Origin: an uncultured Clostridia bacterium
GTDB taxonomy: Bacteria > Bacillota > Clostridia > TANB77 > CAG-508
Assembly (NCBI GenBank): GCA_944386655.1
Contig: CALXBX010000009.1
Coordinates: 2,465 to 66,464, forward strand
Direction of reading: 5' to 3'
DNA length: 64,000 nucleotides
Part shown: positions 59,818 through 62,241 of the stretch, piece by piece
How the letters are laid out: each line of letters starts with the position of its first letter
Numbering within the stretch: position 1 is the stretch's first letter
The notes under the pieces: generated by a model
What the model was told of the DNA's origin: nothing
Seen by the model: only the letters and a program-made list of their open reading frames with translations
Database searches by the model: none
Translations under genes and position numbers: made by a program

Positions 59818-62241
59818 ATGAAAGTTTTATTTGCAGTAAGTAATGAGAATATTTCTAGTTCCATTGTTAAAAAATATCAACAAATGTATAAAGAAATCAT
59901 TTCTTATAAAAATGTTTATTACTTTAATGCAATACTAAAAGAGTTACAGAAAGATAAAACATATGATAGAATTGTCATTAGTGAGGATTTAGAGCCATTT
60001 GCAAATAATAATTATGAAACAATTGACAATTTTATTTTTGAAAAATTAGACAGTATTTCTGATGAAGCATCCAATAGTCAAGGAGAAGATATTCCTATTA
60101 TATTAATTGCAACGGATAGGAGAACAAAGTCAGAAAGTTTATTAATTAAACTATTTGGTATAGGTGTTTATAGTACATTAATTGGACAAGATAGAAGTAT
60201 AGAGCAAGTTTGTAATTTAATTTATAAACCTAGAACCAAAAAGGAAGCAAAAGTATACTATCAAATTGATTCTAATCAAGTAGAGTATAAGCCAGAAGAA
60301 GAAGTAAGTGAAGTAGAAATTCAAAATATCTTAGCACATTATAAACGTTTAGGTAGGAACGAAGAAAAATATGTGGAAAGTTTTGATAGTATTGCCTCTC
60401 AATATACAGATGAACAATTAAGAATTATTATTGGCTTTTTACCACTAAATGTAAAAGCAGTTCTAGAAGAAAGAAGCCCAAAATATCAACAAGTCATGAC
60501 ATTCTCTGGTGTAAAACCTAAAAAAGGAACTACAAAGAGAATAGAAGATATGGAAAAAACAAAGTCAAAAGGTAGAAGAAAGGGCGGAGAGGTAAAACTT
60601 CCTGATGATGGAGGAATTAAAGTAGAATCTATTGTAGATAAAGCAGTAACTAAAAGAATGACAAAACCAGTAGTAATTCCGTCAGGCGTATCCACTAAAA
60701 ATGTAAAAAAAGTGGAAAACACAACAAAAAATCAAGAAAATAGAATACAACAACCTATAATGCAAGAAGAGAAAAAAGAAGAAACAATCGAGCAACCAAT
60801 AGTAGAAACAAAACAACCGACTGTAGCAGAAGTACAAGAAGAAGTATCTGTAGCAACACCACCAAAACGTGGAAGAGGAAGACCAAGAAAGGTACAACCA
60901 GTGGTAGAAGAACAGAAAAAGGAAGAAATAGTAGAAGAGCCAGTTGTGAAAAGAAAAAGAGGAAGACCAAGAAAAATACAGCCAGAACAAGCTATGCAAG
61001 AAGAAACTACTTTACCAGGGTTAGAACCAGAAGAACAAGAAAACCAGGTTATATTACCAGGAATAGATGACGAGGAAGAAACAACAACTACTATGCTACC
61101 AGGAATGGAAGAATCAGAAGAAGAAACAACTACACTTCCTGGTTTTGACGAAGAAGAGGATACAGAAGAACAAAGCCAACCAATGTATCATCCACAAGAA
61201 AATAGCTTACCAGGATTGGATGATGAGGAAGAAGAAATACAAGAAAATCCATATCCAAATGAAGACGAAGATACTTATCACAATACAGCAATGACAAATA
61301 GCCAATATCAAGGCAGTATAGATATAGAAAATTTATTAACACAAGAAAAGAAAATTGTAAGTTTTGTGGGAACCTCTAAAAACGGAACCTCTTTCCTTGT
61401 AAATAATATGGCACAAATGTTATCGGAACAAGGTATTAGAACAGCCATTTTAGACTTAACACAAAATAGAAACGCTTATTATATCTATACAAAAAATGAA
61501 GAAGATTTAAGAACAGTAGCATTTGAATGTATGGCAAGATTAGTACAAGGAGAAGCAAAAGGAATTAAAGTAAATGCTAATTTGGATGTATATACTTCTC
61601 TACCAGGAGAAGATGCAGGAGTAGAAAATGAACAAGCAATTTTATCTACTTTGTTAAAATATTACGATTTAATTTTATTAGATTGTGACTTTGCATCACC
61701 ATATGGATATTTAGCTAATAGCCAAGAAATTTATCTAGTACAAAGTATGGATGTATTAACAATTCAGCCACTAACTGCATATTTAAGAGATTTAAAAGCA
61801 AAAGGTATTTTAGAACAAGAAAAACTAAGAATTGTAGTAAATAAATATACAAGAGTAAGAGGTATTACAGAAAAAACAATTATAGGGGGAATGGCATATT
61901 ATAATGATCCTGCCATGTCCTATATGACAGAGTTATTTAATAGAGAAAGTGTAAAATATTGTATAGTACCATTTGAAGTACAAACTTATGCAAAATATTT
62001 AGAAGCATTAGTAAATTGTGAAATATCCCTTAAAGGTTATTCTAAAGAATGCATGAACTATTTTAGAAAATTAGCGAATATGGTATATCCTTTAGTAAAT
62101 AATCAAGATTCCAACAATAAAAAGAAAAAAGGCAAAAAAGAGAAACCAATTTTCAATCAATATGAAAAAAACAGTAATTATAAACCACAATTTTCTAATC
62201 AAATGAATGATACCTTAAATAGAATGAAAAAATACGAATAA
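59818..62241 (+). CDS. TadZ/CpaE-like protein: receiver-like N-domain, disordered linker with two AT-hooks and five acidic LPG repeats, degenerate MinD/ParA-like C-domain
   Basis: 807 aa. N-terminus MKVLFAVSNE...RIVISEDL. KRGRGRPRK and KRKRGRPRK. LPGLE/LPGID/LPGME/LPGFD/LPGLD. C-domain VSFVGTSKNGTSFLV...LILLDCDF... Confidence 0.7.
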   Translation: MKVLFAVSNENISSSIVKKYQQMYKEIISYKNVYYFNAILKELQKDKTYDRIVISEDLEPFANNNYETIDNFIFEKLDSISDEASNSQGEDIPIILIATDRRTKSESLLIKLFGIGVYSTLIGQDRSIEQVCNLIYKPRTKKEAKVYYQIDSNQVEYKPEEEVSEVEIQNILAHYKRLGRNEEKYVESFDSIASQYTDEQLRIIIGFLPLNVKAVLEERSPKYQQVMTFSGVKPKKGTTKRIEDMEKTKSKGRRKGGEVKLPDDGGIKVESIVDKAVTKRMTKPVVIPSGVSTKNVKKVENTTKNQENRIQQPIMQEEKKEETIEQPIVETKQPTVAEVQEEVSVATPPKRGRGRPRKVQPVVEEQKKEEIVEEPVVKRKRGRPRKIQPEQAMQEETTLPGLEPEEQENQVILPGIDDEEETTTTMLPGMEESEEETTTLPGFDEEEDTEEQSQPMYHPQENSLPGLDDEEEEIQENPYPNEDEDTYHNTAMTNSQYQGSIDIENLLTQEKKIVSFVGTSKNGTSFLVNNMAQMLSEQGIRTAILDLTQNRNAYYIYTKNEEDLRTVAFECMARLVQGEAKGIKVNANLDVYTSLPGEDAGVENEQAILSTLLKYYDLILLDCDFASPYGYLANSQEIYLVQSMDVLTIQPLTAYLRDLKAKGILEQEKLRIVVNKYTRVRGITEKTIIGGMAYYNDPAMSYMTELFNRESVKYCIVPFEVQTYAKYLEALVNCEISLKGYSKECMNYFRKLANMVYPLVNNQDSNNKKKKGKKEKPIFNQYEKNSNYKPQFSNQMNDTLNRMKKYE

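Follow-up and report, generated by a model that had tools for sequence, protein, structure and literature searches.

Proteins of the ParA/MinD family normally position cargo through ATP-dependent, non-specific binding to DNA or membrane, and CarD joins AT-hooks to an RNA-polymerase-binding domain. Canonical AT-hooks of the HMGA type are, to our knowledge, very rare in bacteria, with CarD and WhiB7 as the known cases, and we know of few short linear motifs in bacteria. WhiB7, an actinobacterial transcription factor, has a structurally confirmed C-terminal AT-hook and binds AT-rich DNA (PMC11354804); in MinD and FlhG, C-terminal membrane-targeting sequences mediate membrane binding (PMC12826062). 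Here, we report the analysis of an 807-amino-acid (aa) open reading frame (ORF) in a 64,000-nucleotide (nt) stretch of DNA (the window; GenBank assembly GCA_944386655.1, contig CALXBX010000009.1, positions 2,465 to 66,464) from an uncultured Clostridia bacterium. Between a receiver-like and a MinD/ParA-like domain, the encoded protein carries a long disordered linker with two AT-hooks followed by five acidic LPG motifs. Our preferred reading, offered tentatively and at a little under an even chance, is that of a non-enzymatic scaffold with an HMGA-like linker that bridges the AT-rich nucleoid and the membrane, its acidic motifs serving for multivalent docking; DNA binding, membrane association and docking are what we infer from the sequence.

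The source genome (1.58 Mb, 74 contigs, 30.6% GC) holds one copy of the ORF, and its base composition bears out the AT-rich chromosome claimed in an earlier note on this DNA, which was made from the sequence alone. More than 7,000 database homologues were found, every one unnamed or annotated as hypothetical. An AlphaFold2 (AF2) model of the whole protein resolved aa 165 to 230 and aa 505 to 760 and left aa 231 to 500 disordered (mid-protein sequence, ...TPPKRGRGRPRKVQPVVEEQKKEEIVEEPVVKRKRGRPRKIQPEQAMQEETTLPGLEPEEQENQVILPGIDDEEETTTTMLPGMEESEEETTTLPGFDEEEDTEEQSQPMYHPQENSLPGLDDEEEE...). Charge in this linker is segregated, with a net +14 in aa 231 to 392 and a net −35, with zero K/R, in aa 393 to 500. 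The ORF and the features of its linker are as follows (window coordinates; pLDDT, predicted local distance difference test).

59818..62241, + strand: whole ORF (from the ORF list), 807 aa, with receiver-like domain, disordered linker, pseudo-MinD/ParA domain and C-terminal tail
60613..60681, + strand: island of conservation within the linker's basic half, aa 266 to 288, GIKVESI...TKPVVIPS (G266, I267, I272, P284, V285, I287 and P288 invariant in alignment A1)
60859..60900, + strand: AT-hook 1, PPKRGRGRPRKVQP, aa 348 to 361, from the sequence (R353, G354, R355, P356 and K358 invariant in alignment A1; logo of 233 proteins)
60946..60984, + strand: AT-hook 2, VKRKRGRPRKIQP, aa 377 to 389, from the sequence (R381, G382, R383, P384 and K386 invariant in alignment A1)
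60994..61317, + strand: acidic block, aa 393 to 500, 35 D/E and no K/R by charge count, AF2 pLDDT <50, containing the five LPG-hydrophobic-acidic motifs
61012..61026, + strand: LPG motif 1, TTLPGLEPEE, core from aa 399, from the sequence
61054..61068, + strand: LPG motif 2, VILPGIDDEEE, core from aa 413, from the sequence
61096..61110, + strand: LPG motif 3, TMLPGMEESEEE, core from aa 427, from the sequence (42-nt unit 76% identical to unit 2)
61135..61149, + strand: LPG motif 4, TTLPGFDEEED, core from aa 440, from the sequence
61207..61221, + strand: LPG motif 5, NSLPGLDDEEEE, core from aa 464, from the sequence

Both hooks (PKRGRGRPRKV and KRKRGRPRKI) fit the definition of the HMGA-type AT-hook (PF02178), that is, a G-R-P core with Arg before it and Lys/Arg on both sides; the two canonical hooks described in the earlier note were recovered, and each has an RGRP core preceded by K[KR]x and followed by [RK]K. 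RGRP[RK]K occurred in 2 of 100,000 shuffles of linker aa 231 to 500, against the two copies observed, and a genome-wide scan of stop-to-stop ORFs (≥80 aa) showed the 807-aa ORF to be the sole carrier of RGRP[RK]. A homologue (P0039) has a precomputed PF02178 match. Conservation was scored in 248 distinct full-length members, comprising the top 120 relatives, 78 translated sequences from species genomes and representatives of an exhaustive profile search. Exactly two hooks were present in 233 of them (94%), at a median spacing of 22 aa, and all of the top 120 relatives (55 to 90% identity) carried two RGRP hooks, one of them with a third GRP. Five positions per hook were invariant, set in a linker that is hypervariable around them (alignment A1). 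The logo of the hooks over the 233 proteins, [PV]K[KR][GRK]-RGRP-[RK]K-[VIN][QP], matches the HMGA hook consensus, TPKRPRGRPKK (quoted in PMC11354804).

The hook-coding DNA contains an exact 17-mer, AGAGGAAGACCAAGAAA, at 60874 to 60890 and again at 60958 to 60974, which extends to a repeat of 29 nt at 90% identity. The exact repeat had been noticed before and taken to indicate duplication; the repeat stands, but recent duplication was rejected as its source in favor of codon bias and homogenization, because both hooks predate the radiation of the family and each is spelled in the commonest codons of the genome (AGA 68%, GGA 62% and CCA 62% genome-wide). AGA accounts for 29 of the 33 Arg codons in the gene, and the probability of one hook copy having the preferred-codon spelling is 0.12. 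In 80 genes, the two hooks within one gene had 3.4 of 4 RGRP codons in common, against 2.6 predicted from the gene's own codon usage and 2.8 of 4 for hooks of different genes (permutation P < 1e−4, a test inflated by relatedness). Such sharing within genes suggests homogenization between two old hook copies. In one orthologue (G146:C2:147135-147218), both hooks spell Gly with GGC and Pro with CCT, which are minor codons, a hint of gene conversion. The Arg codon CGG, which makes up 0.6% of Arg codons genome-wide, is absent from the 807-aa gene.

All five LPG-hydrophobic-acidic motifs reported earlier after the hooks were located. Shuffling linker aa 231 to 500 gave at least one LPG[LIMFVW][DE] in 202 of 100,000 trials and two in none. 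Among the stop-to-stop ORFs of the genome, more than one [LIM]PG[FLIMW][DE] occurred in the 807-aa ORF only, with one each in seven other ORFs. Over the family, the repeat logo is [ED][ED][DE][TND][ITVM]-L(89%)-P-G-F(77%)-[ED](95%)-[ED], in which P and G, at 100%, are fixed by the search pattern (for a 15-mer example of the motif peptide, see EDTILPGFEEEE). Between 1 and 13 LPGF[ED] copies were found in 220 of the 248 members (family range, 0 to 13) and 2 to 9 LPG motifs in each of the top 120 relatives. The earlier note had named conservation in homologues and variation in repeat number as checks, and both came out in its favor: two hooks and LPGF[ED] motifs persist in 233 and 220 of 248 proteins, respectively, and copy number shifts from 3 to 5 between relatives at ≥79% identity. 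Some lineages contain near-identical tandem units; those in the window are old, being 64 to 76% identical in DNA over 42 nt. A 1,702-aa family member (L013; G056:C13:7000-16500, − strand) has an ER/K coiled-coil insert of about 400 aa before its two hooks and a polyacidic tract of about 600 aa, in which drifted forms of the motif, NILPSLE, NMLPLLED and NMLPSFED, are found (NILPS[LAF][ED] variants).

In 226 of 231 proteins, every hydrophobic-acidic motif is C-terminal to both hooks, and the segment after the hooks, 55 to 461 aa long, has a median of 33 D/E against 4 K/R across the family. In HMGA and HMGB proteins, an acidic tail tunes or gates DNA binding, and an arrangement of hooks followed by an acidic tail is that of HMGA. 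By analogy, the acidic block might be an intramolecular regulator rather than a docking platform, a DNA mimic that folds onto the hooks and the basic linker half and tunes or gates their DNA binding, with LPGF only strengthening the self-contact. The strict charge segregation (+14, then −35 without K/R) and the constant placing of an acidic segment, with its 33 D/E to 4 K/R, after the hooks agree with such autoinhibition. Yet an electrostatic mimic needs neither an invariant L-P-G-F core nor the NLF replacement described below, and the spread of copy number from 0 to 13 and of segment length from 55 to 461 aa sits poorly with it; we regard autoinhibition as unlikely, while still giving it some weight.

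Family members that lack LPG carry, at the same place, repeated [VIL][ND]LF[DNSG]L[DE][DE] or ELPGLF[DE] (e.g., VNLFDLEE and IDLFNLDD). Because these motifs replace LPG at that place, the conserved entity is a short hydrophobic-aromatic-acidic peptide rather than bulk charge, behaving like a short linear motif; the variation in copy number (3 to 5 in close relatives, 0 to 13 in the family) is likewise the pattern of a multivalent motif of that kind. A second alternative is that the linker is a block polyampholyte that self-associates or forms condensates on DNA, through pairing of the basic and acidic blocks of adjacent molecules, with LPGF as stickers and no dedicated partner. Strong charge segregation, predicted disorder, a variable number of multivalent aromatic-acidic stickers and the presence of the array in no other protein of the genome would all fit. 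The motif is, however, too sharp for a generic sticker (L 89%; P and G 100% by construction), the hooks are fixed at two where the stickers vary, and other families of the order build this two-domain protein around a linker of ER/K helices or of PEPPK repeats; on balance, we consider condensation distinctly improbable.

A related idea, which we rate as very improbable, is that the LPGF/NLF-acidic motifs imitate a peptide of a core machine (FtsZ C-terminal, SSB tip, β-clamp or EIDAL type), so that the nucleoid-tethered, membrane-linked scaffold would sequester a division or replication factor or set its position relative to the chromosome. If true, this would amount to a nucleoid-occlusion-like or origin-anchoring system peculiar to the order and built from eukaryote-style AT-hooks. 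The motif was compared with such peptides, those of the genome itself included, and a good fit was found to none. The FtsZ tail, DLDIPSFLRK (...NDLDIPSFLRKNKGIK), has only Φ-P-x-F in common with the motif, which has neither a Leu following the Phe nor a basic tail, making this a long shot. SSB ends in GDDLPF, and LPGF is internal with an extra Gly. For the β-clamp motif, a PolC-like ORF ends in QMSLFG; NLF resembles QLNLF without the Gln, and LPGF is without the fourth-position Leu. The EIDAL motif bound by CheY was a poor fit to the LPGF/NLF motif.

A profile of the N-terminal domain gave a single match per genome in 197 of the order's 201 genomes, covering all five families, and the gene for the two-domain protein is a core gene, present in single copy, of one order of uncultured Clostridia from the gut. 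A whole-protein search of 300 genomes of the class gave full matches only inside the order and three weak matches outside it, to the C-terminal domain only; the N-terminal-domain search of 401 genomes of the phylum gave nothing convincing beyond the order. In GTDB terms, the order of the hook-bearing genomes is probably TANB77 and their family CAG-508. These genomes (0.9 to 2.2 Mb, mostly 1.1 to 1.8 Mb) are uncultured gut metagenome-assembled genomes from humans, rabbits, chickens, mice and deer, and one genome with the protein is that of Candidatus Merdicola faecigallinarum. TANB77 has been tied to cancer immunotherapy response in a published meta-analysis (PMC11680825).

Hooks and LPG motifs are confined to one family of the order. 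In the other four, the linker between the same two domains contains neither hooks nor LPG motifs and is either some 80 aa long or made up of ER/K helical or PEPPKVE repeats, and no RGRP[KR]K-coding DNA was found in five genomes from hook-less families. In sister family f214, for instance, the homologues L108 (G694) and L111 (G718) have an ER/K-rich helical-repeat linker (e.g., ARQEAEAKRQAEEE, with KRLQELAKQQQ units), and in sister family f212, L116 (G698) has a proline-rich linker with a PEPPKVE/APKVE repeat array. Such very different linkers between the same domains, next to the same neighbors, would be expected if the linker were mainly a length-dependent spacer and the hooks and LPG motifs a lineage decoration of little functional weight. 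That explanation leaves unaccounted for the five invariant positions per hook amid a hypervariable linker, the occurrence of exactly two hooks in 94% of 248 members and the homogenization of hook codons within genes, and we find it the least credible of those considered, with very little in its favor.

Under the preferred scaffold reading, a disordered spacer of about 270 residues would have turned HMGA-like in one family, with a basic hook half and an acidic LPGF half. The two hooks, about 22 residues apart, would enter the minor groove of AT tracts, and since such tracts are everywhere at 30.6% GC, the protein would be kept on the nucleoid with no sequence specificity. The acidic segment would show 2 to 13 copies of [DE][DE]x[ITVM]-L-P-G-F-[ED][ED], or of [VIL][ND]LFxL[DE], by which a folded partner may be recruited through avidity. 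At the other end, the C-terminal domain, the amphipathic tail and the membrane-protein neighbors would place the protein at the membrane, where it would work with two membrane proteins, the 137-aa one encoded upstream and the degenerate-GGDEF one downstream. The result would be a bridge between chromosome and membrane with a client concentrated there. In favor of this reading are the canonical hooks, fixed at two; the hydrophobic-acidic motifs, placed behind the hooks and variable in number; the predicted disorder and the charge segregation of the linker; the two folds and the invariant P-loop; the MinD-like tails of sister families; the conserved gene neighborhood; and the separate MinD, Soj, ParB and DivIVA of the genome. 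The folded domains and the tail are as follows.

59818..60267, + strand: (βα)5 receiver-like domain, aa 1 to 150, without the acidic pair and the lysine of receivers (AF2 pLDDT 87, alignment A4; Foldseek)
60310..60501, + strand: helical bundle, aa 165 to 228, appended to the receiver-like domain (AF2 pLDDT 84 to 91 in both models; conserved across the order)
61318..62097, + strand: ParA/MinD-fold domain, aa 501 to 760 (AF2 pLDDT about 80; Foldseek)
61369..61392, + strand: GTSKNGTS, a variant P-loop that replaces (K)GGxxGK[ST] (invariant in alignment A1)
62191..62235, + strand: amphipathic C-terminal helix FSNQMNDTLNRMKKY (tail F792 to Y806), possibly serving in membrane targeting or docking (AF2 helix 795 to 806, low confidence; hydrophobic moment 0.5)

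The N-terminal fold was unresolved in the whole-protein AF2 model and was solved by a second AF2 run on a more diverse alignment, as a (βα)5 fold followed by the helical bundle. Its best Foldseek match in the PDB was the Caulobacter CpaE receiver (4n0p; E, 4e−4; template-modeling [TM] score, 0.61 to 0.68), followed by TadZ (4lda), CpaE (4dn6) and then response regulators. PDB and Pfam sequence searches made per domain, including one with a 22-sequence N-domain profile, gave nothing significant, and the REC model of Pfam had no match to the N-domain. The phosphorylation pocket is lost: the β1 loop has S/N-N-E (here S-N-E), an invariant E56 follows β3 and is succeeded by D/E, and an invariant R126 stands after β5 in place of the receiver Lys. 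The domain is, by its model, a receiver fold without the REC phosphorylation residues (a predicted pseudo-receiver). Its conserved α4-β5-α5 face is equally conserved in families without the hook and LPG motifs.

The C-terminal domain matched Soj, ParA, FlhG, FleN and MinD in the PDB by Foldseek (E, about 2e−7; TM, 0.6 to 0.69). The MinD/ParA-like label of the earlier note therefore holds by fold but fails by sequence: Pfam CbiA scored 15.5 to 17.7 bits on the ORF, under its 25.4-bit cutoff, and the MinD model TIGR01968, at E ≤1e−3, had no match to the ORF while matching four other loci, including the true MinD. The P-loop GTSKNGTS has neither the GK[ST] lysine nor the deviant-Walker signature lysine (elsewhere in the order, it is GxxKxG[ST][ST]), and the domain has probably lost ATPase activity. 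The C terminus of the hook-bearing family is an amphipathic FSNxMNxTLDKMKxNY, and those of sister families end in ...RRGLFG, KKFFG, FSLFGK or KKGLFGR, which resemble the membrane-targeting sequence of MinD. In the f214 homologues L108 and L111, a KKGLFG-like motif occurs both right after the N-domain and at the C terminus.

The neighboring genes form a conserved order, small membrane protein, 807-aa-type gene, degenerate-GGDEF membrane protein and ireB, found at 76 to 79 of 80 loci and also in a sister family.

59400..59813, + strand: gene of the upstream partner, a small membrane protein of 137 aa, separated by 4 nt from the 807-aa ORF (directly upstream in 76 of 80 related loci; also sister family)
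62264..63361, + strand: gene of the downstream partner, a membrane protein of 365 aa whose GGDEF domain is degenerate, RYMGPKF for GG[DE]EF (Pfam GGDEF E, 8e−11; directly downstream in 79 of 80 loci; sister family)
63381..63638, + strand: ireB, which comes next in the conserved order (Pfam IreB E, 1e−40; 79 of 80 loci)

Two more GGDEF-domain ORFs were seen in the genome, on contigs C55 and C54. Besides a true MinD, the genome also encodes DivIVA and a Soj-ParB pair; with these kept, the 807-aa protein is therefore an extra system, and its candidacy as a replacement for MinD or Soj was rejected. Membership of a pilus locus was rejected as well, given the conserved non-pilus neighbors and the location of T2SSE-family genes on other contigs (C42 and C26). 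One cluster of type IV pilus-like genes (L202; G000:C42:11520-15650), with PilB-like (542-aa) and PilT-like (366-aa) ATPases after pilin-like ORFs, is unlinked. Elsewhere in the window, a sigK-like ORF (58437 to 59219, − strand; Sigma70 r2/r4) has an odd hydrophobic tail, ...RDERIIISFVFLFIFRFGVLLLFD, overlapping a convergent nagZ-like gene, and a ruvX/yqgF-like ORF (63761 to 64000, + strand) has an apparent late start from TTG.

Several observations weigh against the bridging scaffold. Because the four other families keep the domains and neighbors without hooks or LPG motifs, the core function of the module does not depend on DNA tethering. The Pfam AT_hook model, of 13 positions, scored 15.9 bits on aa 378 to 389 (E, 0.011), below its 17.4-bit threshold. 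The relocated lysine of GTSKNGTS is invariant, so the domain may still bind nucleotide. For the tail of the hook-bearing family, membrane targeting is no more than an analogy, the tail not being of the GLFG type and its AF2 confidence being low. Among genome ORFs of at least 80 aa, no other protein carried the LPG array, and no docking partner was identified. TANB77 is, finally, an order of uncultured bacteria with reduced genomes (PMC11680825).

If the scaffold reading is right, a ParA/MinD relative without the catalytic P-loop lysine, bearing constitutive DNA hooks and a docking array, would be a new design of positioning scaffold, and its repeats a defined short linear motif in bacteria. 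Fixed and always paired, the hooks belong to a single-copy core protein in a large uncultured gut order. Full-text literature searches did not find AT-hooks combined with MinD in Clostridia.

Among known systems, HMGA and, in Myxococcus xanthus, the HMGA-like domain of CarD resemble the 807-aa protein in their repeated RGRP hooks, basic flanks, adjoining acidic tract and disorder. There is no homology beyond the motif, and here the hooks lie in an insert in a MinD-like scaffold, with an acidic tract that has a defined LPGF motif. WhiB7 is a bacterial protein with an AT-hook too, but its single hook sits on an Fe-S transcription factor, with no acidic array and no MinD-like domain. CheY, a receiver fold, recognizes a short peptide of acidic-hydrophobic character, EIDAL, at the N terminus of FliM (PMC6946799). 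Motifs such as DIDLFDL and TLPGFEE are of that character as well and share a protein with a receiver-fold domain, but the likeness is no more than a resemblance, and the receiver α4-β5-α5 face is equally conserved where the motifs are missing. MinD and FlhG share the fold of the C-terminal domain and, with sister families of the protein, a GLFG-type amphipathic tail, but the 807-aa protein is without the deviant Walker A motif (K)GGxxGK[ST] and is missed by TIGR01968.

TadZ/CpaE, the localization hub of Tad/Flp pili, likewise combines an N-terminal atypical receiver with a C-terminal MinD/ParA fold. TANB77 has a Tad-like cluster with TadZ/CpaE-like proteins of its own (PMC11680825). The 807-aa protein differs in having no detectable sequence similarity (no Pfam, NCBIfam or PDB sequence match to CpaE/TadZ), a 270-aa disordered linker with hooks and acidic motifs between its domains, a gene outside any tad/flp locus with no adjacent TadA/CpaF ATPase, and GTSKNGTS as its P-loop. 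The order-wide module would be a membrane-associated pseudo-receiver/pseudo-MinD scaffold in a TadZ/CpaE-like layout.

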